Assembly: GCA_002391675.1 (NCBI GenBank)
Contig: DGFM01000038.1
Coordinates: forward strand, 1-63,863
Direction: 5' to 3'
Source: Cloacimonetes bacterium UBA3900
GTDB taxonomy: Bacteria > Cloacimonadota > Cloacimonadia > Cloacimonadales > Cloacimonadaceae
DNA: 63,863 bases
Shown here: in pieces, positions 17,415 to 55,192 of the stretch
Layout: each line of letters starts with the position of its first letter
How positions within the stretch are numbered: the first letter of the stretch is position 1
Notes under the pieces: generated by a model
Database searches by the model: none
The model's input: the letters and a program-made list of their open reading frames with translations, nothing else
What the model was told of the DNA's origin: nothing
Translations under genes and position numbers: made by a program

Positions 17415-19148
17415 TCATCCAAAAGCTTTCCCATTTCCCTGGCCTTCTCTGTCTATCCTCATCACCACCACATCGCCGGCTTTTACGTCTCCAAAAGAGA
17501 TGATATTGTCTTTGGCCGTCGCTTTTTCATATTTCAGCTCAGGCTGGTTTCCATCCAATATCTCTTTGATCCTCACGTCTCCAATCAGCTGCAAGGTAAA
17601 GCTTTCCATGTCATCAGCAAAGCTCACGCTCACTTCATATAGAGATTCATCCACCGTCACAGCTGCCCGTTTTTGCCACCACTCCGCGATCTTTCCCGGG
17701 CTGGTGATCCAGGTATCGGCGGTCCCAATCATCTCCAGGATATAGGGATACAGCTTTTCCATGTAGCTGATGTCTGTCCAGGCAGCCACGCTCATGTCTA
17801 TGCCCATCACGCTTCCGGATTTGATGCATTGCTGGAATATCTTTTTCACCATGCGCTTGGCGTCGTCCAGAGGCAGTTCTTTGTGGTAGTTCACCATCAG
17901 ATAGCGGTCTCTCAACACTATCGGGATTTCCCAAAAACCGCTCTGCGCCTTGGCTACCCAGGGCATCCACGGCAGGCCAAATCCATATTTGAAGCCTGGC
18001 GTTTCATCCGGCGCATGGCTCTGTCCGTAGGCGGGCGAGAGCTTGGAATGCAGCTCCAAAATCTTGGCGTTGGTCTTGTATCGCAGTTGCCTTATGCCGA
18101 TATTCGTCTTGTGCAGCAGGTGTATCAACACTTGTTTGCGGCTCAGGAAGTCATCGCGATTCAGCTTGTCCGCAGTGGCCAAGAGCCCTATCTCACACTT
18201 TTCCTTGTCCAGGTTTTGGATTTCCTCCAGCAGGTCTGCATCATCCAGGCTGTAGTCTATATCCTCACACGCTTCCGAGGCAAAAAACCAGCTGCTTTTC
18301 ACCTTGGCTTCACGCTCTAAGCTGCGGTACTCCTTAAAGTTCCAATACAGCTCGTAGTTGGTGAAGAGATATTTGAGCTTGCCCTTCATCTCATGCCAGA
18401 GGCGGCCCCACCTGAAGGTGAAGAAAAGTGCCACGTCATCGGCAATCCCGAGCAGCAGCGAAGAGAGGCTCCATTTTTGCAGGGTGTCCACGCTGTGAGT
18501 GAGGCATACCGCCGCCTTTTCGCCCTTGGGCCATTTCAGCTTCTTGCTGGTGTAAGTGCCTGAAGAACGGACATATTCCACGATCATGGAGTCCAAAAGC
18601 CAGAGCAGGTTGTCCACCGCCGGACTTTCCATATTGTCACGGAAGACGCTTTGGCTGTCCGCCAGCACGTAGTTTTCGTTACCTGCGCTGTTGAGGGCTT
18701 CTTCTCGCATGGCCAATCTGAAGAAGATGTTTGCTACCAGGTCAAAGGTGATTCTGCCTGCTTTCAGGCCGTCCTCGGTGTAGTTTACCGCCGGATAATC
18801 AAAGCTGCGGGCGCTGATCACCAAGGTGGGGGAGAGCAGATTCACCTTGCGCAGGTTGCTCTTCAATTTCGCCGCTGTGTAGGCAGTTTCGTCAAATAGA
18901 TCCGGCTCGCTTTGAATGAAAATGGTGATGTATTTGCGCGCAATCGCCTGCAGCTCCTCGCTTGTGGGCTCGGTGTATCCATACATGATCAATACGTCAT
19001 TTTCGCTCACCTGCTCCAGCCTCTCCACAAAGAGATAATTGTATCCCAATGCCGAGAGAGCATACTCAAACGCATAGCGAATCTGACTTTGAAAGCGCTG
19101 TAATTTGTAGTCTATATATATGGATATCATTGTGTTCTCCATCACCAA
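17415..19148 (-). CDS. Hypothetical 577-aa protein, possibly a divergent NodB/deacetylase-like fold
   Basis: Long ORF 31 nt from the WecA-like gene on the same strand. The stretch AAVCLTHSVD...SSWFFASEA...CEIGLLATAD resembles the RHDVD...YYFR...HEIGYHYE pattern of the 59015 deacetylase-like protein, but with key residues changed. Confidence 0.55.
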   Translation of the reverse strand: MVMENTMISIYIDYKLQRFQSQIRYAFEYALSALGYNYLFVERLEQVSENDVLIMYGYTEPTSEELQAIARKYITIFIQSEPDLFDETAYTAAKLKSNLRKVNLLSPTLVISARSFDYPAVNYTEDGLKAGRITFDLVANIFFRLAMREEALNSAGNENYVLADSQSVFRDNMESPAVDNLLWLLDSMIVEYVRSSGTYTSKKLKWPKGEKAAVCLTHSVDTLQKWSLSSLLLGIADDVALFFTFRWGRLWHEMKGKLKYLFTNYELYWNFKEYRSLEREAKVKSSWFFASEACEDIDYSLDDADLLEEIQNLDKEKCEIGLLATADKLNRDDFLSRKQVLIHLLHKTNIGIRQLRYKTNAKILELHSKLSPAYGQSHAPDETPGFKYGFGLPWMPWVAKAQSGFWEIPIVLRDRYLMVNYHKELPLDDAKRMVKKIFQQCIKSGSVMGIDMSVAAWTDISYMEKLYPYILEMIGTADTWITSPGKIAEWWQKRAAVTVDESLYEVSVSFADDMESFTLQLIGDVRIKEILDGNQPELKYEKATAKDNIISFGDVKAGDVVVMRIDREGQGNGKAFG

Positions 19149-19340: not shown

Positions 19341-20900
19341 GAGTCTCTAATGTTGGTGTAAATTCCAACTTGTTATTGATACGGTTCTCTGAGGACATTT
19401 TAAAATTCCTCGTTATTCACTTCTATGTTCGGTCGACTGACTGTCGCCATTATCTTAACACTGGTGATATTCGTCAAGAGTTTTCTCATTTCTGGCTACC
19501 TGCTACCTTGGGATTGAGCTCTGCGGAGGTGGCATAGCCGACGGAGCAGAGCTCAATCCCGTCGGATTTTACAGCCAATGTCATTGGGCTTTTCTGGTTT
19601 TCTCTAATTGCCTCCATGGGTGATACAATATACCTTTTGCCGCTTATCCAGTCTTCTGATTGATCCTGCAGAATCGCACCGAACATCCTCGCACAGCTAT
19701 TCTCGTCAGGGAATATCCTGACGCATCTTTCCCGGCGTCTCAGCTCTCTATTCACTCGTTCAATTGGGTTCGTGCTCTTGATTTTACTCCAATGCGATGG
19801 AGGGAAATTAAGATAAGCTGTTATCTCGTGGTAAGTGCTATCGAGCCTGCCTAATAGCTTGTCTTTGTTCCTGGCTTCGGCTGCCTTGATGAGCTCGCTC
19901 CAAGCTGCCGCAAAAGATTCCCTTGTACTGGACTTAACCAAATCTTTTATACGCGGCAACAGCCACTGTAGATCAGACTTAGACACCTTGCTCATCGCGT
20001 TGCGCATCCAATGGACAATACAACGCTGTCTGAGTTGACCGGGGAAACATTCCTCTATCGCCTTTATCAATCCATCATGCTCGTCACTGATCCAGAGCTC
20101 CGATCTCTCAAGACCACGTGCTTTTAAGCTCTGAAAGAAGTCCTTCCAATTGTGATAACTCTCACGGTTACCAAGATGAAAACCCAGCACATCACGATAA
20201 CCATCTTCGCTTACACCAATTGCCACTAAAACAGCAGTAGAACGAACAGCATCATCTATCCTGATCTTGGTATAGATCGCGTCAACCCAAATATAGGCAT
20301 AACAGCTATCTAACTGCCTGTTCCGCCACTTCTCTATCTCATCATCAATCTTGGCGGCACAACGGCTTACCAAGCTGCGATCTATATTGCCAAGCCCTAA
20401 ATCCTCAAACACTTGGCTCATCTTGCGAGTAGGCACACCAGCATAATAGGCTTCGCAGATAATGCTGATCAAGGCCTTGTCTACGCGTGAATACCGCTCT
20501 AATATCGAGGGATAGAAACTGCCACGCCGAAGCTTGGGGACACTAACGTTGATCGCCCCTAATGCGGTTTTAAGAGGCTTCTTGCGCCTGCGATAGCCGT
20601 TGCGGCTGTTAGTCCGCTCATCTGATCGCTCATAACGATCGGCGCCCAATCTGTAACTTAATTCCGCTTCAATAAGTTCACGGATGCCGAATGCAAGCAC
20701 CTGCGCAAAATCGTTCGGCATAATTTCACTAAAGTACTTGACTAAATCTGCCACTTCAGTTTTCTTTGTCCTTGGTTGAGTCATTTGATTCTCCTTTAAT
20801 GATTCGTTTTGGTGAGAACCATAAAATAAAAAGTGGGAATCGGCTCAACCTTTTTGTTCAAAACGGTTACCTATTTTACACCAACCTTTGAGACACTACC
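19341..20900 (-). mobile_element. IS256-family insertion sequence, apparently intact
   Basis: Imperfect terminal inverted repeats: GAGTCTCTAATGTTGGTGTAAA (19341-19362) versus the reverse complement of 20875-20896, GTGTCTCAAAGGTTGGTGTAAA. The direct repeat CAGCTTGATGTT flanks the element at 19329-19340 and 20901-20912. It carries a Mutator-family transposase gene. Confidence 0.8.
19486..20784 (-). CDS. IS256/Mutator-family transposase
   Basis: 432 aa. Contains ELIEAELSYRLGADRYERSDERTNSRNGYRRR, YIWVDAIYTKIR, VAIGVSEDGYRDVLGF, ISDEHDGLIKAIEECFP and RCIVHWMRN. Confidence 0.9.
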   Translation of the reverse strand: MTQPRTKKTEVADLVKYFSEIMPNDFAQVLAFGIRELIEAELSYRLGADRYERSDERTNSRNGYRRRKKPLKTALGAINVSVPKLRRGSFYPSILERYSRVDKALISIICEAYYAGVPTRKMSQVFEDLGLGNIDRSLVSRCAAKIDDEIEKWRNRQLDSCYAYIWVDAIYTKIRIDDAVRSTAVLVAIGVSEDGYRDVLGFHLGNRESYHNWKDFFQSLKARGLERSELWISDEHDGLIKAIEECFPGQLRQRCIVHWMRNAMSKVSKSDLQWLLPRIKDLVKSSTRESFAAAWSELIKAAEARNKDKLLGRLDSTYHEITAYLNFPPSHWSKIKSTNPIERVNRELRRRERCVRIFPDENSCARMFGAILQDQSEDWISGKRYIVSPMEAIRENQKSPMTLAVKSDGIELCSVGYATSAELNPKVAGSQK

Positions 20901-40160: not shown

Positions 40161-40315
40161 CAGTGCTTGTCTATAATGTGGTATACTTTAGCTATTCTAC
40201 ATCAACCAAGAGCAAATGGGTTTTGATCAACCTCCTTTGCATGGGAAGCAGATGCTCATCCTTTGATAACTTGGGCTTAGGCAAGCTGCGGTTCTTGAAC
40301 AGATTGTAATTTGAT

Positions 40316-41371
40316 ATGAAGAAACCTACCATCCTCCACCTTGTCACCTCTTTAGGCCGAGGGGGTGCAGAACGTCAATTGGCTACCATCGCAAACCATG
40401 CAGATGAAACGAACAATATCATCTTTTCTTTCCATGATAGAGCTACAGGCTATTTGGATGATCCGGCCAAGATAAAGGCGTTTAAAAGCAAGGGGCTTAT
40501 CAGTAGGCTTTTTGAGCTCAGGTCTATTCTGCGCGAGCAAAAGCCGGATCTCATCTATGCTTGGGCACCGCTACCTTATGTTTTGGCATCCCTTGCCGCA
40601 TTTGGGCGAGGCTCCAAGATAATCAATGGAAGCATCCGCCATGGTATTTTTAAAAGAACGCCTAATGGCTACTTTAGAAAATGGCTTTTGCAGAGCTCCC
40701 GCTATGTGGTGGCAAATTCCTATGCGGGCTTACAAGCAAATGGGATCAAGAAGGGTTTTGTGCTCTACAATGGCATTGATCCTAAGTTTGATAAAGCAAA
40801 TTGGCCAAAAGGGTCTCAAGGAGAATCAGGTAAAGTGCTCAATTTACTATCCATCGCCAATTTGGTGCCGGTTAAGGATTACTTTACTGTGCTGGAGGCT
40901 CTTAAAAAGATCAAAGATGATGGCTTTAGCTTTCATTACTGCATTATTGGTGAAGGGCCACTGAGAAGTGAGATAGAAACAAGGATAAGGGAATTGGAGC
41001 TGTCTAAAATGGTCCAGCTTCTGGGTCGAGTCAATGACCCTGAGACCCATCTGGCACGGGCAGATATCTTCATCCACTCCTCCAAAGGGGAAGGATGCTC
41101 CAATGCTATTTTGGAAGCGATGTATATGGCTCTCCCTGTGATTGCTTCGGATACGGGTGGCACCTCGGAAATCGTGGTCTCAAATGCAATTCTTTTCGAA
41201 TACAAAAATATCCGGCAGCTTTATGAAGCTATCAAGAAGCTGTTGCAGGATGAGAACCTGAGAAAGGATATGGCTGCTGAATCTTATAGAATTGCCAGCA
41301 GCAGGTTCAGTGTGAAAAGTATGCTGGCTAACTATAACTCCATCATAACCGAAATACTAGCAGGTAAATAA
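40316..41371 (+). CDS. Glycosyltransferase family 4
   Basis: Paralogous to the 36527 gene: ILHLVTSLGRGGAERQ and HSSKGEGCSNAILEAMYMALPVIASDTGGTSE. Confidence 0.8.
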   Translation: MKKPTILHLVTSLGRGGAERQLATIANHADETNNIIFSFHDRATGYLDDPAKIKAFKSKGLISRLFELRSILREQKPDLIYAWAPLPYVLASLAAFGRGSKIINGSIRHGIFKRTPNGYFRKWLLQSSRYVVANSYAGLQANGIKKGFVLYNGIDPKFDKANWPKGSQGESGKVLNLLSIANLVPVKDYFTVLEALKKIKDDGFSFHYCIIGEGPLRSEIETRIRELELSKMVQLLGRVNDPETHLARADIFIHSSKGEGCSNAILEAMYMALPVIASDTGGTSEIVVSNAILFEYKNIRQLYEAIKKLLQDENLRKDMAAESYRIASSRFSVKSMLANYNSIITEILAGK

Positions 41372-41373
41372 GG

Positions 41374-42435
41374 ATGGTTACTATGAAAATCGGTATTATT
41401 CGCAACGAGGATCCTGAGTCCGCCAAAGATTGGATTCAGGCTTGCAAGAACAGGAAGCTGGACTACACAGTAATAGACATTAGTGCAGATAACTGGTTAG
41501 AACAGGTTCTGAGCAGTCAGGCAGATTTCTTTGTTACCCAGCCCCCTGGGATATATGAACGCTTTAAAACCATGTTTGACGAGCGTATTTACATTATCAC
41601 TCAAGAGCTGGGCATGAAAGTGTTCCCCAGCTTTACTGAAAGCTTGATCTATGAAAACAAGAAGATGAGCTCATATTATTTTAAGGCCAAGAATATTTTG
41701 CATCCCCAAACTTGGGTTTTTTATAGCTATCAAGAAGCGGAAAGCTTCGTCCAGAAGGCCGAATATCCCTTTGTAGCCAAGACTTCTATCGGTGCTTCTG
41801 GTTCAGGTGTCAAAATCATTAAATTTCCTAAAGAAGCGATGGCTTATATTCATCTTGCTTTCAAGGGAAAGGGAATTAAGAGAAGGTTTGGCCCTAATAG
41901 GAATACGGGCTCCCCCCAAAAGTGGGCAGCTAAAACCATCAAAAGCCCCAGTTACTTCATCAAAAGACTTAAGTACTATCTCGAAATTGTTGGTAATACC
42001 CAGTTTGGATATGTGATCTTTCAGGAATATATCCCTCACACTTTTGAATGGAGAGTGGTGAAAATTGGAGACTCATATTTTGTTCATAAAAAAATTGTGG
42101 TGAAGGATAAGGCAAGCGGGGGCAAAGTAAAAGAATTTGGCTTTCCACCCGAGTCAGTTTTGGACTATGTAAAATCTTTATGCAACGAACATGATTTCCA
42201 TTGTGTCTGTGTGGATTTATTCGAGTCCGAACGTGGCTATCTTGTGAATGAGATCCAGTGTGTGTTTGGCATCCCTTACAAGTATCTGGCAAAGGTTGGA
42301 GATGATGTTGGTAGATTTATTCAGAAGGATGGCGCTTGGGCTTTTGAAAAAGGCGACTTTACAGTAAACGAAGCATGTGATCTTAAGTTAGAGGCAGCTA
42401 CAAAGCTGTTTTCACATAACAAGGAAGATGGCTGA
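41374..42435 (+). CDS. ATP-grasp domain protein (RimK/Ddl-like carboxylate-amine ligase)
   Basis: YPFVAKTSIGASGSGVKII, FQEYIP...EWRVV, and VDLFESERGYLVNEIQ (Mg/ATP-binding E/N region). Confidence 0.65.
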   Translation: MVTMKIGIIRNEDPESAKDWIQACKNRKLDYTVIDISADNWLEQVLSSQADFFVTQPPGIYERFKTMFDERIYIITQELGMKVFPSFTESLIYENKKMSSYYFKAKNILHPQTWVFYSYQEAESFVQKAEYPFVAKTSIGASGSGVKIIKFPKEAMAYIHLAFKGKGIKRRFGPNRNTGSPQKWAAKTIKSPSYFIKRLKYYLEIVGNTQFGYVIFQEYIPHTFEWRVVKIGDSYFVHKKIVVKDKASGGKVKEFGFPPESVLDYVKSLCNEHDFHCVCVDLFESERGYLVNEIQCVFGIPYKYLAKVGDDVGRFIQKDGAWAFEKGDFTVNEACDLKLEAATKLFSHNKEDG

Positions 42436-42452: not shown

Positions 42453-43469
42453 ATGCCAGTAAGAAAACTATACAAATCACTTCGGGCTAAGCTGAACACC
42501 AAGCAAAGGTCAGCCTTATCTAAACTTGTCTTTTCCATCAGTGGCAAGCCCTTCGTCTATGCTCAAAACCAGGCGATCTACAAGGGCTTTCCGCAGCAGC
42601 AGCGAGGTGGTTTTATTATCTCTGCAGATTTTGAAATGGCCTGGGCTTTTCGCTACTCCAAACGTAAGGTGGATCCACTAGCCATGGCGCAACTGGAGAG
42701 AGAAAACATCCCCGAGCTGCTCAAGCTATTCGAAAGATACAATATCCCCATTACCTGGGCTACAGTTGGGCATCTGATGCTTGAGAGCTGCAAGAAAGGT
42801 GACCATGATTGGATGCAGCGGTTGCCCTATGTGGATGACCATTGGAAGTATACATCTGGAGATTGGTTTGATGCAGACCCATATACGGATTACAAAGCCG
42901 ATAACGCTTGGTACGCCCCCGATATGTTGGAGCTCATTTTACAATCCCCGGTCAAACACGAGATTGGCTGTCATACCTTTTCTCATATAGATTGTCTGGA
43001 TCGTAATTGTCCACCTCAGGTTTTGGATGACGAAATAGTTGCCTGTAAAAATGCCGCCAAGGCTTGGGATATAGAGCTTAAATCCTTCGTTTTTCCTGGG
43101 GGAACTGCGGGGAATTACCCAATCCTTAATAAACATGGCTTCCAAATATATAGAAAGAACGTTGACCACGATCTTGCCTATCCTTATCCAGATGAGTATG
43201 GTATGCTAATCACTCCAAGCACTTCTGCCTTTGGTAGAATTCATGATTGGAGCGCGGACTACTATATCTATAGGTTTAAGACCATGTTAGACAAGGCGGT
43301 TAAAACAAACACAGTGGCTCATATTTGGTTGCATCCCTCAGTGGATAAATGGACCATCGCTGAGGTGATGCCAGAAGTGCTTAGGTATGCCTCAGATTTA
43401 AGAGAAGCGGGAAAGCTCTGGATTGGAACTATGGGTGATATCGCCAACCACATCAATGGTGGTGAGTAA
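42453..43469 (+). CDS. Polysaccharide deacetylase-like protein
   Basis: IISADFEMAWAF, NIPITWATVGHL, EIGCHTFSHID, and WLHP near the C-terminus. Confidence 0.65.
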   Translation: MPVRKLYKSLRAKLNTKQRSALSKLVFSISGKPFVYAQNQAIYKGFPQQQRGGFIISADFEMAWAFRYSKRKVDPLAMAQLERENIPELLKLFERYNIPITWATVGHLMLESCKKGDHDWMQRLPYVDDHWKYTSGDWFDADPYTDYKADNAWYAPDMLELILQSPVKHEIGCHTFSHIDCLDRNCPPQVLDDEIVACKNAAKAWDIELKSFVFPGGTAGNYPILNKHGFQIYRKNVDHDLAYPYPDEYGMLITPSTSAFGRIHDWSADYYIYRFKTMLDKAVKTNTVAHIWLHPSVDKWTIAEVMPEVLRYASDLREAGKLWIGTMGDIANHINGGE

Positions 43470-45301
43470 TGGCTGGAATAACGGGAATCATAGCTCTAAA
43501 GCCCGATGGCTTGGTCAGGGATACATCAATCTTTGAGCGGATGATAGTCGGCATTAAGGCGGAAGTAACCCAAGAGCATAGTAGCTTCTACGATGAAAAT
43601 GTTTTTGTTTCTATTGTTTCTCAAACAAGATCAAGTCCGAAAGCCAACTTTTACCACGACCAAGAGTATGGTATCATCTGTGCCTTGGATGGATTTTGCT
43701 TTATTGACGAACAGGCGGCTGCCGGGTTCGCTCGGGATGAAAGTGTTCCCAAAGATGCGAGCACTTTAGCTAAGATAGTTCACCTGTATCGGAAGCTGGG
43801 TGAGGAAGTGTTCAGGCATCTCCGAGGTAGCTTTAACCTACTCATCTATGATGCCGAAAAACGGAGAACCATTTTGGCGAACGACAGGTTTGGTTTCTAT
43901 CCAATGTACTATGCTCAAAGTGCAGAATACTTGATCTTTTCTTCCAAGCTCAGTTCCATAATTGATTCCGGTCTCATCCAATCGCCCCAAGCAGATCTTG
44001 CCAGCATAGTGGAGCATCTATACTTTGGCTATGTAATCTCTGAGCACAGTTACATCCGGGGTGTTTGCACTTTACCCAATGCCAGTGTAATCAAGGTCGA
44101 AGACTGCCAAGTTGCCATAGATAAGTATTGGAAAATGGCATCAGAATATGGCAGGAATCCGCTTAATAAAAAGCAGAGTATTGAAGCTGTTGACCAAGGC
44201 TTAAGGGCGGCTATTTCCCGCATAGCTCAGGTGGACGAAGCACTGTTGTGCTCTATCACCGGAGGCTGGGATAGCCGTGTGGTGCTTTCCTATCTGCTGC
44301 CTCAGGCAAGAAAGCGCCTGAATTGCTATTCTTTCGGTGCCGGCGATGCGCCCGACGTCACTATTCCTCAGCTAATCAGCAGCAAAGAGTCCTTTCGCTA
44401 TCGTCCTTTCAGCTTGGACCAAACCTATCTTGATAATGACTTTATCGCTGCAGCTCAAGATACGATCAGACTTTCTTCAGGTACCAGGAACTACAAGAGG
44501 ACCCACTATCTTTATGCTCTCCGGGAGATGGGTGAATACTCTCAACATCTTATCAGTGGCATTTTTGGGGATCAGGTGTTTAAAGCTGGCAGACCTAAAG
44601 GCAATGTGGTTTTGAGCAGCGCAATATTGAACCCTCTGGAATCTAACTTTGATCTGGATTACCTGAACACGGACTTACAGTCCTTTTTGAAAGCGTTTTT
44701 GCCCGAGCATGATAGCAAAGAGCTGCTGTCCGAACTGTTAAACAGGATGGCTTCGCTAAAAGATCAATTCTCTATCTATGCCTCTGCACCTGAAAGATAT
44801 ATCGCTTTCCGTTTTGAGATAAACCTGCGTAGATACTTTGGTAACGAAGCCAGCAGCTATAACGACTATGCCTTGTGCTACTCTCCTTTTACAGATTATG
44901 ATTTTGTGAAAACCTGGCTTATTACCTTTTATGCGGGGCAGCTATACCCTTTCCAGCCGGCTACCAAAGCCATGCAAAGAAATAGTGGTACCCTCTACGC
45001 AACCTTGGTGAAACGGAACTATAAGCCCTTGATTTACTATCCAACAGCGAGAGGATATACCATGGCAGATACCCTCTCTTTCTTTGGCAGTTTCCGTATT
45101 TTGCTGGCCAGGCTGCAGAGAGAGAAAAATGCCCACAAGGATGCTTTTTCAACCAAAGATACTGTTGCTCTCTTCCAAAACATGCTGGCCCAGGAAAACA
45201 TAAAATGTAGCTTTGACATAGGCAGGTTCAAGGGAACAAATGCCTATGATGATGCTTTGTCTTTATGTTACTGGCTTGCCATCAATGGCTTGGCTAAGTG
45301 A
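43469..45301 (+). CDS. Asparagine synthase (AsnB)-like amidotransferase lacking the N-terminal nucleophile Cys
   Basis: The N-terminus reads MAGITGI instead of the canonical MCGI. There is an Ntn-like domain (RGSFNLLIYD, NDRFGFYPMYY) and a PP-loop-like SITGGWDSRVV. TAATG overlap with the upstream gene. Confidence 0.75.
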   Translation: MAGITGIIALKPDGLVRDTSIFERMIVGIKAEVTQEHSSFYDENVFVSIVSQTRSSPKANFYHDQEYGIICALDGFCFIDEQAAAGFARDESVPKDASTLAKIVHLYRKLGEEVFRHLRGSFNLLIYDAEKRRTILANDRFGFYPMYYAQSAEYLIFSSKLSSIIDSGLIQSPQADLASIVEHLYFGYVISEHSYIRGVCTLPNASVIKVEDCQVAIDKYWKMASEYGRNPLNKKQSIEAVDQGLRAAISRIAQVDEALLCSITGGWDSRVVLSYLLPQARKRLNCYSFGAGDAPDVTIPQLISSKESFRYRPFSLDQTYLDNDFIAAAQDTIRLSSGTRNYKRTHYLYALREMGEYSQHLISGIFGDQVFKAGRPKGNVVLSSAILNPLESNFDLDYLNTDLQSFLKAFLPEHDSKELLSELLNRMASLKDQFSIYASAPERYIAFRFEINLRRYFGNEASSYNDYALCYSPFTDYDFVKTWLITFYAGQLYPFQPATKAMQRNSGTLYATLVKRNYKPLIYYPTARGYTMADTLSFFGSFRILLARLQREKNAHKDAFSTKDTVALFQNMLAQENIKCSFDIGRFKGTNAYDDALSLCYWLAINGLAK

Positions 45302-45332
45302 TGGTGGGTAGCAAATCGTTTAGTATTATAGT

Positions 45333-45755
45333 TCACATTCCTGTTACCTCCGTTAAAAGCCCTGCTTCAATGGCACTCTGTACGCTCCTGCAGGGCAAAT
45401 CTTGACTTTCTACCATTTCCCAGTTCAGGTCCAGAATATCAATGCCCAACGCCTTGGCTTGAGCATACATCAGTTTGATAAAGAGGTTGTGGCTGCTTCG
45501 AATAGGCTTCTCGTCTTCTGTTATGTTTGCATTATGAAGCACAACATACCGTTTCAATTCATTCACAAACTCATCTGGTACGTTTATCGAACACAAATGC
45601 TTGGTTGCTAAGCCAAGCTTCTTGTTTACTTCGGTATACCTTGGTTTTACATAACGTCTTGCGTAGACGTTGTTTGTGGATTTGTTACCATAGTATACCA
45701 GCCCGTCCATGGTCCCACTCAAACAAGGGGCACAATTCTTCATCGTTACTTTCAT
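45333..45755 (-). CDS. Hypothetical protein (~140 aa); the only minus-strand gene inside the glycan locus
   Basis: ATG 45755 is preceded by AAGGAGAC 4 nt upstream. The ORF-track start at 45845 is probably an over-extension. No motif recognised. Confidence 0.55.
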   Translation of the reverse strand: MKVTMKNCAPCLSGTMDGLVYYGNKSTNNVYARRYVKPRYTEVNKKLGLATKHLCSINVPDEFVNELKRYVVLHNANITEDEKPIRSSHNLFIKLMYAQAKALGIDILDLNWEMVESQDLPCRSVQSAIEAGLLTEVTGM

Positions 45756-46207
45756 TTTTGTCTCCTTTATTGTAGTTTTTAGTATCCAGGGCTTATTGTG
45801 GCGGGTGCGAGGCTCACGAGCCCATATCGCCAGCCTCTTTCCCATCCTCCACCTTTACATCCACCCTTATTAAATTAAGGAGGAATTAAGGTGGCAAACA
45901 AGTACCTTCTACAATGTACACTGACGACCTCACTTTTGCTCTTATTTCCCCTTGAGCTGAGCTTGTTTTATACCATTTAAGCACCAGATCCTCAGCGTGT
46001 ATAACTAAATATGTATTAGATGGTTCTAATGTTTGACCAACGTGTCATATCGTGACGTAAGTGAAATGAAACAATTGTTGCTGAGCTCCCGTGAAAGGTA
46101 AAGTAGCCTGCGTCCACGCCTTAATTCCGAATGATAATCCCCAAATCCCATTTAGTTACTGCCGGGGTTAGCCTCATAACATCACAACATCACCATTAGG
46201 AGAAGCA

Positions 46208-47317
46208 ATGAAGAAACAAGAAAGATTTAAGCTTGCAGAAATCAGTATATATGGCTACAAGTCTATAGGCAAACCACAAACCTTGAGCTTTGGTGACGTC
46301 AATGTGCTGATTGGAGCCAATGGAGCAGGCAAGAGCAACTTGGTTTCTTTTTTTCAGATGTTGAATCACATTGCTATAGGTAGACTACAGTTGTTCATTG
46401 GCAGAAATGGCTATGCTGAATCTGTTCTCTATTATGGCCCTCAGAAAACGGAAGCATTTAGGGCAAAAGTCAGATTTGAAAAGCAAGATATGTCTATAGA
46501 GTATGAGTTTTTCTTGGGTTATTCATATCAAGGGCAAATGACCTTTATTATAGAGTCATTTAAGACTACAGGTAAGCCCTTACAGTTTTTAGGTGCGGGT
46601 CATAGAGAGAGTCTGTTAAAAGAAAAAAAGTTGCGGGCACCAAGTGCTCTACCCCTCCTCTCACTACTCAGAGGTTGCGGGGTGTTTCAATTCCACGATA
46701 CTTCAAATAACTCATCTATCAGACAGCCCGCCAACATCAACGACAATCGTTACCTGCGTTCCGATGCGGGGAATCTGGCTGCTTTTCTCTATGCCATGCG
46801 TGAATCCAAGCAGGGAAGAAGATATTTTGAGCGCATTGAATTCGTGATTCACAGGATATTGCCCCAGTTTGAATCTTTTTTCTTGGAACCTGCAGTAGAA
46901 AACCCTAATTTTGTCAAGCTTAATTGGCGTTCGAAAAAGGAAGATTACATCTTTGGGGCGCATCAGTTATCAGATGGTTCACTACGCTTTATGGCATTGG
47001 CAGCCTTACTTTTACAGTCTCCTGAAACTCTGCCCAATGTGATCGTGATTGATGAGCCAGAGCTTGGCTTGCATCCCAAGGCATTGATGGATCTGGTGGG
47101 AATGATAAAAATAGCATCTGAAAACAGCCAAGTAATCCTCAGCACCCAATCCTCATTCTTGCTGGATTTTTTTGATGTGGATGATATCATTGTGGTGGAT
47201 GTAGAACATGATTCCTCAACTTATAAAAGATTAAACACAGAAGAGCTTGCCCAGTGGATCGAAGATTATTCCTTGGCTGAGTTGTGGGAGAAAAACATAC
47301 TGGGAGGGAGGCCGTGA
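46208..47317 (+). CDS. ABC/SMC-like ATPase (AAA_15/AAA_21 type)
   Basis: Walker A GANGAGKSN, signature-like HQLSDGSLRF, Walker B VIVIDEPELGLHP. The H-loop position reads STQS. Confidence 0.8.
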   Translation: MKKQERFKLAEISIYGYKSIGKPQTLSFGDVNVLIGANGAGKSNLVSFFQMLNHIAIGRLQLFIGRNGYAESVLYYGPQKTEAFRAKVRFEKQDMSIEYEFFLGYSYQGQMTFIIESFKTTGKPLQFLGAGHRESLLKEKKLRAPSALPLLSLLRGCGVFQFHDTSNNSSIRQPANINDNRYLRSDAGNLAAFLYAMRESKQGRRYFERIEFVIHRILPQFESFFLEPAVENPNFVKLNWRSKKEDYIFGAHQLSDGSLRFMALAALLLQSPETLPNVIVIDEPELGLHPKALMDLVGMIKIASENSQVILSTQSSFLLDFFDVDDIIVVDVEHDSSTYKRLNTEELAQWIEDYSLAELWEKNILGGRP

Positions 47318-47997
47318 CTCGTCTCCATATTTTCGCTGAGGGCCAAACTGAAAAACGGTTTGTTGAAGAGCTGCTAGTAAACCATCTTTTTGTGTTTGAG
47401 GTTTATGTACAGGTGAGCACTTTTACCACTAAATTTGATAAACAAAAAGGTAAGAAACATAAGGGAGGGATTGGCAACTACGAAAAAGTAAGACGGGAGA
47501 TAAACAATCTGCTTAGGGAAAATACCAGAGAATGCTTTAGAGTTACTACTATGATCGATCTTTATGGAATCCCTACAGATTTCCCGGGGCATCGTGAAGC
47601 TTTCTTGAAAAAAGACGCCTATGAGAAGGTGGATGCCTTGGAAAATGCGCTTGCAGCAGACATAGAGTGTAGTCGGTTTATACCTTATGTTCAGTTACAC
47701 GAGTTTGAAGCTTTACTATTTAGTGACCCAAACAAACTGAAGCACTTATACTTTGACAATGACAGACAAATAGGTGATCTGGTGGCATTGAGTGAAAAAG
47801 TGAATCCCGAGCTGATAAACGATGGTCCGCAAACGAGCCCATCGAAGCGAATCATGGCGGCTATAAGTAGTTATGATAAATGCTTTGCTGGAAGCAGTGT
47901 TGCCGGAGCGATTGGGTTAAATAAAATCAGAAACAAATGCAAGCATTTTGATGAATGGCTATGCAAACTTGAAAATCTGAATAAAGATGTACTGTAG
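47314..47997 (+). CDS. Small TOPRIM-like protein resembling the DUF4276 family
   Basis: The GTG start overlaps the ATPase stop (GTGA). N-terminal LHIFAEGQTEKRFV (acidic EGxxE strand), TTMIDLYG and LHEFEALLF. The family assignment is from memory and needs an HMM check. Confidence 0.65.
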   Translation: MTRLHIFAEGQTEKRFVEELLVNHLFVFEVYVQVSTFTTKFDKQKGKKHKGGIGNYEKVRREINNLLRENTRECFRVTTMIDLYGIPTDFPGHREAFLKKDAYEKVDALENALAADIECSRFIPYVQLHEFEALLFSDPNKLKHLYFDNDRQIGDLVALSEKVNPELINDGPQTSPSKRIMAAISSYDKCFAGSSVAGAIGLNKIRNKCKHFDEWLCKLENLNKDVL

Positions 47998-48107
47998 ACA
48001 ACGATTTAAACTCTCACGGGCTGAAGAAGTATTGGTAAACGAGTATTAGACTATACCATATAGTATCAATAGCTCTAAGATCGCTGGAAATTTAAATAAC
48101 GTCCAAC

Positions 48108-49091
48108 ATGATAGTTCTTTCTATTAGCAGCGGAAACCGCCTTGACGGAGATATATCGCCCATCGTTAAAGCCCAGAATAGGTCTTTGCAACAAACTGGG
48201 CTTGATATTGATACCTACGCTATCGTTGGTAAAGGCTTGTTAGGTTATTTGAAAAACGTTTATCCTCTGTATAAGTATTTACAGAAAAATGAGATAGACT
48301 TGATCCATGCCCACTATTCTTTGTGTGGCTTCGTGGGTTATTTTGCTACATTTTTATACAGGCTGAGTGGCAAAAAAAGGCTACCCATGGTTGTATCCCT
48401 GATGGGGAGTGATGTAAAAAGTAGTTGCTTATGGCGCGGGATTATTGCTTTTTTTGTCAAGCACTTTTGGTCTGTCACCATCGTAAAATCCGAAGATATG
48501 AAAAGGAGTTTGGGGATCAAAAGCCTCCAAGTGATCCCCAATGGAGTGGATTTGGAGCTCTTTGATCAGCGCGATAAAGGGGCATGCAGAAAGAAACTGG
48601 CTTGGGAGCAGGACGTGCCCCACATCCTATTTGGCTCTAATCCCAATAGAGACGTGAAGAACTACCCTCTGGCAAAGAGAGCGTTTGATCTTCTGCTGAA
48701 AAACAACCTACATCTCCAAGAAGCAAATTGCCAGCTTAAGTCTCTGAAGTCCGCGCCTCACGATTCCATTCCGATATATCTGAACGCCTGTGATGTGCTG
48801 CTGCTGACCTCTAAATGGGAGGGTTCGCCCAATATCATCAAAGAAGCCATGGCTTGTGGAACTCCAATCGTCTGCACCGATGTGGGTGATGTGAGATGGC
48901 TTTTGAGCGGCCTGGACGGGTGCTTTATCACTAACAATACGCCTGAAGATATTGCGCTGAAACTAAAACATGCACTCCAATATGACTCTAAAACCAAAGG
49001 TAGGGCAAGACTTCAGGAGCTCTGCTTGGATGCTAAGCTGGTAGCAGAGAGGCTGTTGGGCATTTATGAAGGTATTAGGTTTAAGTATTGA
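48108..49091 (+). CDS. Glycosyltransferase (GT4-like)
   Basis: C-terminal LLLTSKWEGSPNIIKEAMACGTPIVCTDVGDV. Confidence 0.75.
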   Translation: MIVLSISSGNRLDGDISPIVKAQNRSLQQTGLDIDTYAIVGKGLLGYLKNVYPLYKYLQKNEIDLIHAHYSLCGFVGYFATFLYRLSGKKRLPMVVSLMGSDVKSSCLWRGIIAFFVKHFWSVTIVKSEDMKRSLGIKSLQVIPNGVDLELFDQRDKGACRKKLAWEQDVPHILFGSNPNRDVKNYPLAKRAFDLLLKNNLHLQEANCQLKSLKSAPHDSIPIYLNACDVLLLTSKWEGSPNIIKEAMACGTPIVCTDVGDVRWLLSGLDGCFITNNTPEDIALKLKHALQYDSKTKGRARLQELCLDAKLVAERLLGIYEGIRFKY

Positions 49092-49140
49092 AAGTTGACA
49101 GTATGCATTCAATATCAGGCAGTTGTGAAAGAGAATATGA

Positions 49141-49866
49141 GTGATTGAGCTGCACATTTTAGGAGAAGGCTACACGGAGGAAGCGTTTGTCAAAGAGCTG
49201 CTCATTGGTCATCTTGCCAATTATGGGATTAAGGTAGTGGCGAGCATATTTGTTACCAAGTTTGATGAGGATACCGGGAGGCTGTACAAAGGTGGTATCA
49301 GCAACTATCAAAAGGTGAAGAGTGACATTGTGAGGCGGCTATCCTCCGATAGAAGGGATAACCTAAGGGTTAGTACCATGATAGACTTTTATGGATTGCC
49401 TGCGGATTTTCCTTCCTATTATCAGGCTTATCGAGAAGAAGACCCCTACAAAAGGGTGGAGATCTTGGAAGCTGCCTTTGCAGAAGATATAGGGGACAGC
49501 AGGTTTATCCCTTATTTGTCGCTGCATGAGTTTGAGGCCTTGATCTTTAGCGATCCAGGCAAGTTGGGGTGCGTTTACTTTAACAATGATAAACAAATAG
49601 ATGAGTTGGTGGCTTTGAGCCAAGAAGTTAGTCCCGAGCTCATCAACAATGATCCAGAAACTTGCCCCTCGAGGAGAATAAAGAAAGCCATCCGCAGCTA
49701 CAATAAACGCTTTGCAGGCAGCAGGGTGGCAAAAGCGATAGGGCTCAATAGAATCAGGAGTAGATGCAAGCATTTTGATGAATGGATTGGTATTCTCGAA
49801 GTGCTGGCAACCGCGGGCGGTTACCAGAGAGGGAGAGAGTGGAGCCAGCTACGCAGGCAGTTGTGA
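49141..49866 (+). CDS. Second DUF4276/TOPRIM-like paralog with no adjacent ATPase
   Basis: Collinear with the 47314 protein by eye along its whole length, with many identical positions: LHILGEGYTEEAFV, STMIDFYG, LHEFEALIF, CKHFDEW. The last ~18 codons read into the polypurine/heptamer repeat. Confidence 0.65.
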   Translation: MIELHILGEGYTEEAFVKELLIGHLANYGIKVVASIFVTKFDEDTGRLYKGGISNYQKVKSDIVRRLSSDRRDNLRVSTMIDFYGLPADFPSYYQAYREEDPYKRVEILEAAFAEDIGDSRFIPYLSLHEFEALIFSDPGKLGCVYFNNDKQIDELVALSQEVSPELINNDPETCPSRRIKKAIRSYNKRFAGSRVAKAIGLNRIRSRCKHFDEWIGILEVLATAGGYQRGREWSQLRRQL

Positions 49867-49902
49867 GTTGTGAGTGATGAGTTGTGAGTGACCCGTGACC
49901 CG
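49826..49902 (+). repeat. R2 module: polypurine run plus a 7-nt periodic array (TTGTGAG orientation)
   Basis: AGAGAGGGAGAGAG ... TTGTGAG TTGTGAG TGATGAG TTGTGAG TGACCCG TGACCCG (49861-49902). Confidence 0.9.
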
Positions 49903-50028
49903 TGCCAAAAAACCGGACTAAAAATGCTAAGGAGAACACCATGGAAATTATGTCCAACAGCGGAGTCATTATCCGGTACAGTGAAGCCTTTAAACTCAAA
50001 GTAAATCATAAGATTGATATTAGGAAAC

Positions 50029-50409
50029 ATGGCAGTAATAAAGAGTTTTAGAGATTTAATCGTATACAGAAAAGCATTTGAAATGGCGTGTAAGATATAT
50101 GGGATCACAAGTTCATTTCCTAAAGAAGAAAAGTACTCACTGACAGACCAGATCAGAAGATCATCAAGATCTGTGTGTGCTAATCTTGCAGAAGCATGGG
50201 CTAGAAAGTCGTACCCTAAGGCATTTGTGAATAGGCTAAGTGACGCTTTGGCTGAACAACTGGAAACAGAAGTCTGGTTGGATTTCTGTGTAAGGCATAA
50301 ATACATTGATAACGCCACATATACAACCCTGTTAGAAAACTATGATGAAGTAAGGAAAATACTCATATCTATGATAAACAAACCGGAGAATTTTAACCGT
50401 GATCACTGA
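50029..50409 (+). CDS. Four-helix-bundle protein (23S rRNA intervening-sequence protein / Avd-like family)
   Basis: MAVIKSFRDLIVYRKAFEMACKIY...FPKEEKYSLTDQIRRSSRSVCANLAEAWARK...L...A..E..ET..WL is a textbook match to this family as recalled. AGGA lies 5 nt upstream of ATG 50029. Confidence 0.85.
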   Translation: MAVIKSFRDLIVYRKAFEMACKIYGITSSFPKEEKYSLTDQIRRSSRSVCANLAEAWARKSYPKAFVNRLSDALAEQLETEVWLDFCVRHKYIDNATYTTLLENYDEVRKILISMINKPENFNRDH

Positions 50410-51748
50410 TAGTCCTGAGAATGCTACCTATAACCCAGAGCTAAAATCTCCCAGCCCAAAAGCGGGGTACTCACAACTCACAACTCACAACTCACAACCG
50501 ACATCTGACAACTTGCAGAATGGCACTGATGGTTCGCAGCGCAAGTTTTCCAGCTCAAAAGCGGGATACTCACAACTCACAACTCACAACTCACAACTGA
50601 CTACGACACCGGGTGTCATAGTCATCGAGGGTCACGTCCAGGGTCTCGCCAACACCCGCCTTCTGGGGAGCAAGGGCATTGACGTGATCGTAGTCGATAA
50701 GGATGACTGCGTGGCAAGGCATTCGCGCTATTGCAAGGCATTTTATAAATGTCCTGACTTTCTTGGGGATGATTTTGCAGACTATTTGATCCGTTTGCAT
50801 AGGGCTTTCAATCTTCAGTATTGGTTGCTTTTACCTTCCAATGATCACGCCGTGCACACCATTTCCAGAAACAAGGAGAGGCTGAGCAAGTGTTATAAGA
50901 TCATCACAGAAGATCTGCCTGTAATCGAAAACATCTATAACAAAAGGAAGCTGCTCAAGATCGCAGCCCAGGCGGAACTGCCCATCCCGGCTACCATCAT
51001 GCCAGAAACAGAGAATCCCAGCGAAGTGGACCTGCGCTATCCTATTCTAATCAAAGGAAATCAGGGCTTGAGCTTTTATAAACGCTTTAAACATAAGGCA
51101 TTGATGCTAAAGGACGCAAGCGAACTGAAGGAGGTTTGGGATGATACCTTGGCGGGTATTGAGCCAACTGAGTATTTCATCCAGGAAGTGATACCCTATG
51201 ATCATAAGACTGTCTCGGTGACAGTTTTTGCGGTTAATGGAGAAGTGCACGCTTTTTGGATGGGGGTAAAACTGAGAGAGCATCCCATCACCTTTGGTAC
51301 CGCGACCTGCTGCAAAAGTGTCTATGAAGAAGATATGCTTTTGCAGAGCAAAAGGCTTATCAAAGAGCTGAATTATACCGGCGTGTGTGAGATTGAGTGG
51401 CTGAGAGATAGCCGCGATGGCTTGGCCAAGCTGATCGAGATAAATGCCAGAACCTGGCTTTGGGTGGAGCTGGCTGCAAAATCCGGGGTGGACTATCCCA
51501 ATATGATCTATGACTATGTTTACAAGGATAAACTGCCCCAACATATTGATTACAAAAAGGATGTGGTCTGGCTGAATATCTTCACGGATCTCGTTTATTC
51601 ACTGATAGGGATCATCAAGGGTAAATACAGGATCAAGGACGTGTGTAAAACGTATAGGAAGTTTCATGAAGCCACTTGGAGACTGAGCGATCCCATCCCG
51701 TTTTTTAAATATGCCCTGTCAACAGGACGTTTCTTGAGGAATAGATGA
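50399..51748 (+). CDS. ATP-grasp carboxylate-amine ligase (COG3919-like) with a repeat-derived N-terminal extension
   Basis: The conserved domain begins at GVIVIEGHVQGLANTRLLGSKGIDVIVVDKDDCVARHSRY. The only in-frame ATG/GTG/TTG codons upstream of it are GTG 50399 and TTG 50513, both upstream of heptamer tract 2. Confidence 0.7.
   Translation: MITDSPENATYNPELKSPSPKAGYSQLTTHNSQPTSDNLQNGTDGSQRKFSSSKAGYSQLTTHNSQLTTTPGVIVIEGHVQGLANTRLLGSKGIDVIVVDKDDCVARHSRYCKAFYKCPDFLGDDFADYLIRLHRAFNLQYWLLLPSNDHAVHTISRNKERLSKCYKIITEDLPVIENIYNKRKLLKIAAQAELPIPATIMPETENPSEVDLRYPILIKGNQGLSFYKRFKHKALMLKDASELKEVWDDTLAGIEPTEYFIQEVIPYDHKTVSVTVFAVNGEVHAFWMGVKLREHPITFGTATCCKSVYEEDMLLQSKRLIKELNYTGVCEIEWLRDSRDGLAKLIEINARTWLWVELAAKSGVDYPNMIYDYVYKDKLPQHIDYKKDVVWLNIFTDLVYSLIGIIKGKYRIKDVCKTYRKFHEATWRLSDPIPFFKYALSTGRFLRNR
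50451..50597 (+). repeat. Two ~48-bp direct repeats 99 bp apart, each ending in (ACTCACA)4
   Basis: CCAGCCCAAAAGCGGGGT(ACTCACA)4AC at 50451-50498 and CCAGCTCAAAAGCGGGAT(ACTCACA)4AC at 50550-50597. The heptamer tracts are at 50469-50496 and 50568-50595. Confidence 0.9.
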
Positions 51749-53985: not shown

Positions 53986-54175
53986 TGGGTGATGGAGCTG
54001 CATTCTGCTGTCGCCGTATCTATTCCCTCGTCTTTCTGAAGGCAGAGATAAAGTTATGCTTTACACAGTTTCAACAAAATGATACCATAACCAACCGCAT
54101 GGATTTCAAACGGTGTACCGTTTTCGCTGTGACTAACTAAATATAAGATAAAAAACAAATCAATAGAGGAACACT

Positions 54176-55192
54176 ATGTTCAAGGACAAAACAATCATTA
54201 TTACGGGTGGAACCGGTTCGTTTGGCAATGCGACTTTAAACCGATTCCTGGATTCCGACATCAAAGAGATCCGCATATTCAGTCGCGACGAAAAGAAGCA
54301 GGATGATATGCGCAAGCTGTATAAAAACGACAAAATCAAGTTTTATATCGGGGACGTGCGTGACTATGATAGCATTTTCAACGCCATGGCGGGCGCAGAC
54401 TATGTGTTTCACGCTGCGGCTCTCAAGCAAGTGCCGTCCTGTGAGTTTTTCCCGGTGCAGGCGGTAAAGACCAATATCCTGGGTGCTGAAAACGTGCTCC
54501 GTGCCGCTATTGCCAACAAGGTGAAAAAGGCAATCGTGCTTTCCACGGACAAGGCAGTTTACCCTGTCAATGCCATGGGAATGAGCAAGGCATTGATGGA
54601 GAAGGTGATGGTGGCCTATTCACGTCAGCAACCCCAAAATGGAACGGTTTTATGCGGCACGCGCTATGGGAACGTGATGGCGTCACGTGGTTCCGTGATT
54701 CCTTTGTTTATCGAGCAGATTAAGGCAGGGAAACCTATCACTGTTACCGATCCCGAGATGACCAGATATCTGATGTCTCTGGAAGAAGCGGTGGAACTGG
54801 TGGTCTTTGCCTATCAAAATGGAGTACCGGGCGATATCTTTGTGCAAAAATCGCCCGCCTCTACGATAATCGACCTCGCCCAGGCTCTGATAGAGCTCTT
54901 TGAAGCCAAAACTGAGATCAAGATAATTGGTACCAGGCACGGCGAAAAGAAGCATGAAACATTGGTCAATAGAGAAGAAATGGTAAAGGCAATCGATCTT
55001 CCGGGATACTTCCGCATCCCTGCAGATACCAGAGACCTGAACTATGACAAGTACTTCAGCGATGGGCAGGCAAAGCTTGCGGAAGCAGAGGACTATACTT
55101 CTGAGAATACTTACAGGCTGAGCATTCCGGAGATCAAAGAGAAATTGCTTTCATTGCAATATGTGAGAGATGAATTAGCGGCTCGTGGCTGA
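54176..55192 (+). CDS. fnlA: UDP-N-acetylglucosamine 4,6-dehydratase/5-epimerase (FnlA/CapE type)
   Basis: MFKDKTIIITGGTGSFGNA...IRIFSRDEKKQDDMRK...FYIGDVRDY...HAAALKQVPSCEF...GTRYGNVMASRGSVIPLF. Nearly collinear with CapE/FnlA as recalled. Confidence 0.85.
   Translation: MFKDKTIIITGGTGSFGNATLNRFLDSDIKEIRIFSRDEKKQDDMRKLYKNDKIKFYIGDVRDYDSIFNAMAGADYVFHAAALKQVPSCEFFPVQAVKTNILGAENVLRAAIANKVKKAIVLSTDKAVYPVNAMGMSKALMEKVMVAYSRQQPQNGTVLCGTRYGNVMASRGSVIPLFIEQIKAGKPITVTDPEMTRYLMSLEEAVELVVFAYQNGVPGDIFVQKSPASTIIDLAQALIELFEAKTEIKIIGTRHGEKKHETLVNREEMVKAIDLPGYFRIPADTRDLNYDKYFSDGQAKLAEAEDYTSENTYRLSIPEIKEKLLSLQYVRDELAARG

Follow-up and report, generated by a model that had tools for sequence, protein, structure and literature searches.

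The gene pair at positions 46208 to 47997 of a 63,863-nt stretch of DNA from Cloacimonetes bacterium UBA3900 (contig DGFM01000038.1; this whole stretch is referred to as the window, and all coordinates are those of its forward strand) can be securely assigned, by its profile matches, to the HEC-01 family. It encodes an ABC-type ATPase and, in a translationally coupled gene, a DUF4276 protein that is predicted to be a TOPRIM-fold nuclease. The two genes form an OLD-like module that was inserted into a surface-glycan operon as a cassette of ∼1.95 kb, at the start of a family 4 glycosyltransferase (GT4) gene. The pair is a further member of an already catalogued but functionally unproven candidate anti-phage family; on balance, it probably has a genuine role against phages or mobile genetic elements.

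HEC-01, the “Hma-embedded candidate 01” (Payne et al., bioRxiv 10.1101/2024.01.29.577857; PADLOC-DB v2), combines an ABC ATPase with a TOPRIM-like partner that retains an OLD-like metal site. The ATPase encoded in the window matches the PADLOC HEC-01A model PDLC04175 with an E value of 2.9e-124, its residues 7 to 369 aligning with positions 4 to 362 of the 363 in the profile, and the adjacent gene product, DUF4276 #1, matches the HEC-01B model PDLC04188 over its full length (2.8e-78). A second HEC-01B protein, DUF4276 #2 (9e-72), is encoded 1.1 kb downstream; it has no ATPase gene of its own, and only the first pair (pair 1) shows the adjacency on the same strand that is expected of HEC-01. 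Thus, the two genes of pair 1 reproduce the HEC-01 organization, here adjacent, co-oriented, and overlapping, but are found in a surface-polysaccharide operon instead of Hma and are accompanied by an orphan HEC-01B gene. A PADLOC check had been proposed in a preliminary description of this region, made from the sequence alone, and it returns a defense-candidate system; since PADLOC would call HEC-01 automatically, this identification is routine.

All five open reading frames (ORFs) listed in the preliminary description are present at the positions given in Table 1, and their Pfam E values are far beyond chance. The 369-aa ATPase displays, in its translation, the Walker A motif GANGAGKSN, the signature LSDGS, and the Walker B/D-loop segment VIVIDEPELGLHP, from which it had already been recognized as an ABC/SMC-type protein, and it matches the Pfam families AAA_21 (2.5e-29), AAA_15 (2e-14), and SMC_N (1.2e-10). 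DUF4276 #1 starts with a GTG codon at position 47314, preceded by a GGGAGG site, so that a GTGA sequence (47314 to 47317) overlaps the stop codon of the ATPase gene, as had been described for a ∼227-aa protein. The DUF4276 label given there is confirmed for both small proteins (Pfam E values of 9.4e-52 for DUF4276 #1 and 3.5e-51 for DUF4276 #2), which share 57% identity across 222 residues.

An ATPase and a DUF4276-family protein also occur together, as Mad3 and Mad4, in MADS, and the ATPase from the window matches the mad3 model of PADLOC (1.2e-24) and the MAD3 model of NCBIfam (1.5e-26). In MADS, deletion of mad3 or mad4 lowers protection, and mad5 can be deleted only jointly with mad2 or mad3; MAD3 and MAD4 are classed as accessory, as they are not present in every MADS system (Maestri et al., bioRxiv 10.1101/2023.03.30.534895). 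Hence, experimental work on the ATPase-DUF4276 pairing, none of which was known to the preliminary description, does exist, both for MADS and for HEC-01 itself, which has been tested in Escherichia coli. However, MAD3, the best NCBIfam match of the ATPase, reaches 93.5 bits where the cut-off is 420, and the ATPase is therefore not an equivalog; moreover, Mad3 and Mad4 are accessory to a methylation system of eight genes. Neither a methylase gene nor a large helicase or defense-type gene fitting mad1, mad2, or mad5 to mad8 is present in the window (the mad6 to mad8 models were not run for each protein). Membership in MADS was rejected on the basis of the MAD3 score and the missing methylase.

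The PARIS pair AriA/AriB likewise consists of an ABC (AAA_15/AAA_21) ATPase and a small TOPRIM-fold nuclease and follows the same sensor-plus-effector logic. However, AriB belongs to DUF4435, not DUF4276, and the AriA match of the ATPase from the window is only to the generic AAA_21-type model (1.2e-31). Phages or satellites are frequent carriers of PARIS, whereas a tblastn search with the family of pair 1 found no match in 50,697 phage records. PARIS membership was rejected, as the small proteins match only HEC-01B in PADLOC and DUF4276 in Pfam, with no match to AriB; the PARIS paper itself lists DUF4276 among the partners of AAA_15/21 ATPases. Septu was rejected as well: the NCBIfam PtuA model scores 35.3 bits against a cut-off of 500, and neither Pfam nor PADLOC detects an HNH domain or PtuB. 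The parallel with PARIS and Septu drawn in the preliminary description therefore does not amount to membership in either system. Menshen includes NsnC variants with a C-terminal DUF4276 domain that are tied to the ABC ATPase NsnB/MenB (PMC12065111), but it is a three-gene system in which DUF4276 is fused to NsnC; here, the NsnB match is weak (2.3e-14), and neither NsnA nor NsnC is found. Finally, OLD and the Gabija protein GajA combine an ABC ATPase with a TOPRIM nuclease in a single polypeptide, whereas the window encodes them in two separate ORFs, for which reason single-chain OLD/Gabija membership was rejected. The Old and GajA models of PADLOC cover only a C-terminal stretch of the ATPase (1e-17 and 6e-15, respectively).

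The link between DUF4276 and the OLD nucleases comes from the predicted fold. An AlphaFold2 (AF2) model of DUF4276 #1, built from an alignment of 55 homologues, has a pLDDT of 92.5 and a pTM of 0.88. In a Foldseek search of the PDB, its top five matches are all TOPRIM C-terminal regions of Burkholderia or Xanthomonas OLD nucleases of class 2 (PDB entries 6nk8, 6njx, 6njw, and 6njv), with probabilities of 0.99 to 1.0 and E values of 4e-4 to 3e-3; matches below rank five are to unrelated proteins. Six residues are invariant in the 55 homologues: Glu9, located directly after strand 1 (residues 2 to 8), Gly10, Glu13, just beyond it, Asp82, Glu130, and Glu132. Asp82 ends the strand formed by residues 75 to 82 and is a single Asp (in Met-Ile-Asp-Leu-Tyr), whereas a TOPRIM domain would have an acidic DxD-like cluster after strand 3; the two remaining invariant glutamates form a Glu130-x-Glu132 motif. 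A 2025 analysis of Menshen placed DUF4276 in the Toprim superfamily, as a homologue of Mad4 (PMC12065111); both this analysis and the HEC-01 paper describe the metal site as conserved.

Several observations weigh against this assignment. The TOPRIM link is structural only, with modest TM-scores of 0.39 to 0.51 to the OLD family and sequence identity of 12 to 16%. In Pfam, the only match is to DUF4276, with none to a Toprim-clan family even at an E value of up to 10, and DUF4276 has no solved structure; in addition, the DUF4276 family profile matched no chain among the PDB sequences, and a search for viral folds in BFVD gave nothing significant. As the fold matches OLD and a bridge at the sequence level is absent, the relationship is best described as real but remote, with DUF4276 being, according to the model, TOPRIM/OLD-like by its three-layer alpha/beta fold. 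The TOPRIM/DUF4276 relationship on which the preliminary description had staked its proposal accordingly holds, given the Foldseek matches and the same assignment in two papers (bioRxiv 10.1101/2024.01.29.577857 and PMC12065111).

The insertion of pair 1 can be traced in related loci, which are referred to here by L numbers. The DNA alignments of the collinear loci L012 and L013, the latter from a metagenome-assembled genome (MAG) binned as Sphaerochaetaceae (GCA_028702575.1), stop at ∼46140 of the window and restart at ∼48093, which defines 46141 to 48092 as the unit gained or lost; the same indel measures 2041 bp in L001 and 67 bp in L012. In a third pair-less locus, L095, judged from its gene order only, the gene for a 140-aa protein is directly followed by the glycosyltransferase (GT) gene. 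All three loci contain an AsnS-like region, or at least its convergent 140-aa partner, and then the GT gene, with no ATPase or DUF4276 gene in between. Hence, only pair 1 is inserted, whereas the 140-aa gene, ∼385 nt of the gap that follows it, and the GT gene are native to the glycan locus. The preliminary description had rightly recognized an insertion into a glycan operon but attributed to it five genes instead of two. By these alignments, the insertion point is the ribosome-binding site and start codon of the GT4 gene, a region of ∼20 to 25 bp that is imperfectly duplicated on both flanks of the insert. A repeat search of the cassette ends revealed neither terminal inverted repeats nor long direct repeats. 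The locus is thus a natural presence/absence polymorphism of HEC-01 with base-level boundaries, in which the gain/loss unit is just two genes.

The 140-aa gene was rejected as a member of the module, since it travels with the AsnS-like glycan gene and occurs without the pair in L012, L013, and L095. Its ORF (45333 to 45845) could encode at most 170 aa, or 140 aa from the ATG at 45755, ahead of which lies an AAAGGAG ribosome-binding site. No other gene of the array is on the minus strand, as all remaining minus-strand ORFs with 150 aa or more in the 22.5 to 63.7 kb range fall within longer ORFs of the plus strand; the 452-nt gap between this gene and the ATPase gene likewise agrees with the ∼450 nt noted previously. 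Only 7 homologues of the protein were found, with no Pfam, PADLOC, NCBIfam, or PHROG matches; its AF2 model is mediocre (pLDDT of 72), and Foldseek found nothing in the PDB below an E value of 0.67. The promoter for the downstream sub-operon may lie in the native intergenic region, and the pair would now be expressed from it; given its placement between this region and the GT start, the pair is probably transcribed together with the glycan sub-operon. Sigma-70 and terminator scans of the region gave no excess over shuffled sequences, and Rfam had no match at an E value of up to 1 across 45000 to 50700. The spacer itself is conserved at 81 to 84% in L012 and L013 despite the absence of an Rfam match and of a strong promoter or terminator consensus.

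Co-orientation and tight packing in a sugar operon, seen here and also at L028 (Bacteroidales) and L080 (Geobacteraceae), could be taken to mean that the pair serves glycan synthesis or export, for instance by providing a polysaccharide ABC exporter with its ATPase and an accessory protein. However, the pair is missing from related glycan loci that are otherwise collinear, a permease partner is absent, the best matches of the ATPase are defense ATPases, with transporter-family NCBIfam scores far under their cut-offs, and sugar operons account for only ∼3 of the 80 species loci described below. Such a role is very unlikely, to the point of being almost negligible.

DUF4276 #2 is, by sequence comparison, the orphan half of a second, related, and independently placed pair, the ATPase of which is intact in sister loci. 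Pair 1 is 100% identical in the window and L001. Between its GT and DUF4276 #2 genes, L001 has as extras a second AsnS-like gene, a gene for a 370-aa ATPase (ATPase2), and a gene for a protein of the 23S rRNA intervening sequence (IVS) type, and in L007, L008, and L015, an intact ATPase-DUF4276 pair lies directly 3′ of a polysaccharide deacetylase gene. The 370-aa pair 2 ATPases of L001 and L007 are 94% identical, and DUF4276 #2 from the window is 88 to 89% identical to their DUF4276 proteins at the amino acid level. Identity matrices give 72% between the ATPases of the two pair lineages and 57 to 60% between their DUF4276 proteins. Accordingly, the “second paralog” of the preliminary description is indeed a DUF4276 protein with 57% identity to DUF4276 #1, but an orphan of a separate pair lineage rather than a simple paralogue. 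Pair 2 is found at a different position in each of the three loci L001, L007, and the window; between L001 and L007, its homology extends from 5 nt ahead of the ATPase ATG to a point 14 nt short of the DUF4276 stop codon.

No remnant of ATPase2 was found in the window. DUF4276 #2 is intact and retains the invariant residues, and its dN/dS of 0.09 to 0.11 against orthologues indicates purifying selection. In a family census limited to one genome per species, at least 600 species had the family; 80 loci were retrieved, and the ATPase gene is immediately upstream of the DUF4276 gene in all 80, which makes the orphan exceptional. DUF4276 #2 may work with the ATPase of pair 1. A rare orphan DUF4276 gene, kept under selection beside a heterologous ATPase, provides a natural test of whether one ATPase serves two TOPRIM effectors.

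Elsewhere, relatives of the pair are found in defense contexts. In L009, the pair is located between SNF2 helicase and N6_N4 methylase genes on one side and a ResIII helicase gene on the other, and in L011, between a gene for a 1147-aa protein and a ResIII helicase gene; both arrangements are Hma-like. In L010, the pair lies between the BREX genes for PglX and PglZ, and an IVS-protein gene lies between those for PglZ and BrxL. The exact PglX-pair-PglZ order is seen in 7 of the 80 species loci. Among the two nearest genes on each side in these loci, PglZ was counted 7 times, BrxL 5 times, and type I R subunits, ResIII, and N6_N4_Mtase 4 times each, followed by Eco57I/MmeI methylases (3), GmrSD (2), and HsdS (2); other defense neighbors include type I/III restriction-modification (RM) genes and methylases. 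The pair is also embedded in sugar operons of Cloacimonadota (L015), Bacteroidales (L028, where YdjC and hexapeptide transferase genes precede the pair and DegT and GT4 genes follow it), and Geobacteraceae (L080, with methyltransferase and GT4 genes before the pair and GT2 and two GT4 genes after it). The habit of embedding in defense operons is thereby extended to surface-polysaccharide operons in three phyla. The neighborhood survey that the preliminary description had called for thus places relatives inside BREX, Hma-like, and RM operons, so that the family is not confined to the company of glycan genes. A single literature search on defense genes in polysaccharide loci turned up nothing directly relevant. 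The divergent upstream flank of L006 was rejected as a real variant and is probably an assembly artifact, because its first ∼400 nt match positions 54150 to 54431 of the window.

These contexts also suit the idea that the pair is an accessory effector that needs a methylation-based system (MADS, Hma, or BREX) and is, in the window, a stranded passenger, either inactive or reliant on a system encoded at another site of the genome. MADS needs Mad3 and Mad4, stand-alone HEC-01 was inactive, the BREX-embedded copies are invariably found between PglX and PglZ, and the window encodes no methylase. On the other hand, in most of the 80 species loci, the pair is intact although neither a methylase nor a helicase gene adjoins it; both pair 1 genes are intact in the window, the ATPase is unchanged across many metagenome samples, and the orphan DUF4276 #2 is under purifying selection. 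This explanation is considered unlikely. A somewhat different possibility is a selfish or addiction-type cassette that settles at the gene boundaries of long, often exchanged operons and is costly to lose while providing no net anti-phage benefit. The clean presence or absence of the insertion with its duplicated target, the tight edges and three positions of pair 2, and the embedding in BREX, Hma-like, and sugar operons are all compatible with such behavior, as is the Pfam description of AAA_21 as a putative AbiEii toxin family. However, no transposase, integrase, or terminal inverted repeats come with the cassette, toxin-antitoxin behavior is without evidence, and homologues show a defense phenotype in MADS genetics; a purely selfish cassette is therefore rather unlikely.

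The preferred interpretation remains that of a HEC-01-type defense module. Its working model, an ABC ATPase in control of a TOPRIM nuclease, is common to PARIS, Septu, MADS, and OLD/Gabija. By analogy with OLD, Gabija, and PARIS, and in view of the genetics of MADS, the ATPase would hold or license the nuclease and sense a phage cue. The TOPRIM protein would then cleave nucleic acid, leading to abortive infection or degradation of the invader. Certain results count against an anti-phage role. HEC-01 in E. coli protected against none of the tested phages (bioRxiv 10.1101/2024.01.29.577857), which goes part of the way toward the expression without a phenotype that the preliminary description had named as grounds for abandoning the idea. 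No DNA methylase, BREX, or Hma gene was found in the 64-kb window, so MADS, the only context with genetic evidence, is missing here. Further, the majority of the 80 species loci have no recognizable defense neighbor or theme, and apart from its absence from phage records, the family was detected by tblastn in only 13 of 72,556 plasmids, at 33 to 42% identity. An identical ATPase is encoded on many metagenome contigs from anaerobic digesters and in the MAG GCA_012842985.1 (named Candidatus Cloacimonetes). In view of this source, a cyanobacterial origin, which the heptamer repeats might have suggested, was rejected. Because HEC-01 is still without a phenotype, this variant offers a starting point for metagenomic or heterologous tests: it comes from an abundant lineage of anaerobic digesters, where strains with a defined empty site also live. 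What the locus adds to the knowledge of the family is modest and overturns no expectation: an insertion polymorphism resolved to the base, pairs embedded in glycan operons, two interleaved lineages of pairs, and an orphan kept under selection.

The pair lies in a mosaic part of the glycan locus. The window and L001 are 100% identical from ∼41.5 to 48.11 kb and again from ∼50.14 kb; between 48.11 and 50.14 kb, they are 54 to 90% identical and differ in gene content, with the GT allele showing 54 to 84% nucleotide identity between flanks of 100%. The left breakpoint is located at the GT start, where the pair 1 cassette has its right edge, and the right one falls within the IVS-protein gene. DUF4276 #2 is an island with 87% nucleotide identity to L007 and unrelated sequence on either side. 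Mosaic blocks against L001, in which 100% identity alternates with 54 to 90%, are found at positions 40314 to 41500 and 48114 to 50139 of the window, and they point to allele replacement through recombination inside the glycan locus. Taken as sequence patterns, these data agree with a hypervariable locus that gains, loses, and recombines cassettes, and they do not demonstrate that the pair drives recombination. If it did, the TOPRIM nuclease and the ATPase would promote recombination in the glycan locus, with cassette-associated breaks shuffling the glycosyltransferase alleles; the breakpoint at the cassette edge, the divergent allele extending into the IVS-protein gene, and the DUF4276 #2 island could all be accommodated. 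However, this is a single mosaic comparison, ordinary homologous recombination is expected to break next to any shared sequence, and most family members reside outside glycan loci, which leaves this proposal with only a slim chance of being correct.

The repeats and IVS-like cassette mentioned in the preliminary description are located next to DUF4276 #2, in the form of a 23S_rRNA_IVP gene with adjoining heptamer arrays. The (AGTTGTG)n array at 49852 to 49895 is inverted with respect to the (ACTCACA)n arrays at 50463 to 50498 and 50562 to 50605, and an 85-nt direct repeat covers 50418 to 50502 and 50517 to 50601. The left heptamer arm encodes the C-terminal extension of DUF4276 #2, whose extra residues are a read-through into this array, and the right arms encode the N terminus (SQLTTHNSQLTT) of the ORF 50399 to 51748; one annotation gives 411 aa for this ORF, so its true start is probably further downstream. 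L001 has 23S_rRNA_IVP genes at 15960 to 16343 and 17492 to 17872, and the IVS-protein cassette between ATPase2 and DUF4276 #2 occupies the spacer of pair 2. Two BREX loci, each from a different phylum, likewise have a gene of this family embedded between those for PglZ and BrxL (L010, at 13349 to 13693, and L044, as a 124-aa ORF), an embedding habit that parallels that of the HEC-01 pair. One could speculate that HEC-01 pairs and IVS-type cassettes are mobile, near-flankless, recombinase-free elements that target the exact borders between genes in long co-directional operons (BREX, Hma-like, and glycan), borrow their transcription, and, in glycan loci, mark the breakpoints of GT alleles or perhaps cause them via TOPRIM cleavage. 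This is quite unlikely; if true, a single exchangeable unit would physically link variation of the receptor with intracellular immunity.

Table 1. Features of the glycan locus around the HEC-01 pair (window coordinates)
Feature	Position	Strand	Basis or remark
140-aa protein, native	45333..45755	-	Linked to upstream AsnS-like gene; pair-free in L012, L013, L095
Native intergenic region	45756..46140		∼385 nt; 81 to 84% nt conserved in L012, L013
Left copy of duplicated GT start region, TTAATTCCGAATGATAATCC	46121..46140		Aligns to GT ribosome-binding site/ATG in empty sites L012, L013
Pair 1 cassette: 67-nt leader, ATPase, DUF4276 #1, 95-nt trailer; ∼1.95 kb	46141..48092	+	Absent from collinear L012, L013
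ABC/SMC-type ATPase, HEC-01A family, 369 aa	46208..47317	+	PADLOC, Pfam, motifs
DUF4276 #1, HEC-01B family, TOPRIM-like predicted nuclease, 227 aa	47314..47997	+	Pfam, PADLOC, AF2/Foldseek
Right copy of duplicated GT start region, TAAATAACGTCCAACATGATAGTTC; actual GT start	48093..48117		Aligns to the same ∼25 bp of empty sites
GT4 glycosyltransferase	48108..49091	+	Pfam Glycos_transf_1, Glyco_transf_4; homologues directly 3′ of 140-aa gene in L012, L013, L095 (native)
DUF4276 #2, orphan TOPRIM-like half of pair 2, 241 aa	49141..49866	+	Pfam DUF4276 3.5e-51, HEC-01B 9e-72
IVS-protein cassette, gene 50014-50409	49852..50605		Inverted heptamer arrays; abuts DUF4276 #2; contains right allele breakpoint
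23S-rRNA-IVS-type four-helix-bundle gene	50014..50409		Pfam 23S_rRNA_IVP 8.9e-33

Some features of the surrounding DNA deserve mention. Positions 43468 to 46102 of the window, with the AsnS-like gene, the 140-aa gene, and the spacer, are 84% identical over 2.6 kb to positions 4071 to 1439 of L013, which suggests either that glycan genes have recently moved between phyla in digesters or that the MAG was misbinned. The AsnS-like gene next to the 140-aa gene, on its upstream side, has been given different lengths in assemblies whose sequences are nearly identical (610, 538 plus 32, 475, and 536 aa; gene calls at L001 7263 to 9094, L099 850 to 2277, and L100 3 to 1613), which suggests frameshift variants or assembly errors. 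A transposase of the IS256/Mutator family (19486 to 20784, minus strand; Transposase_mut, 5.6e-111) is encoded where the G+C content drops from ∼53% to ∼43%, at the left border of the low-GC glycan island (22.5 to 63.7 kb). Near the start of the window, on the plus strand (356 to 4188), two genes that overlap by 4 bp encode, first, a 993-aa protein combining adenylate/guanylate cyclase, AAA_16 (STAND-like), and TPR domains and, second, a 284-aa caspase-like Peptidase_C14 protein; together, they look like the sensor and protease pair of a conflict system.

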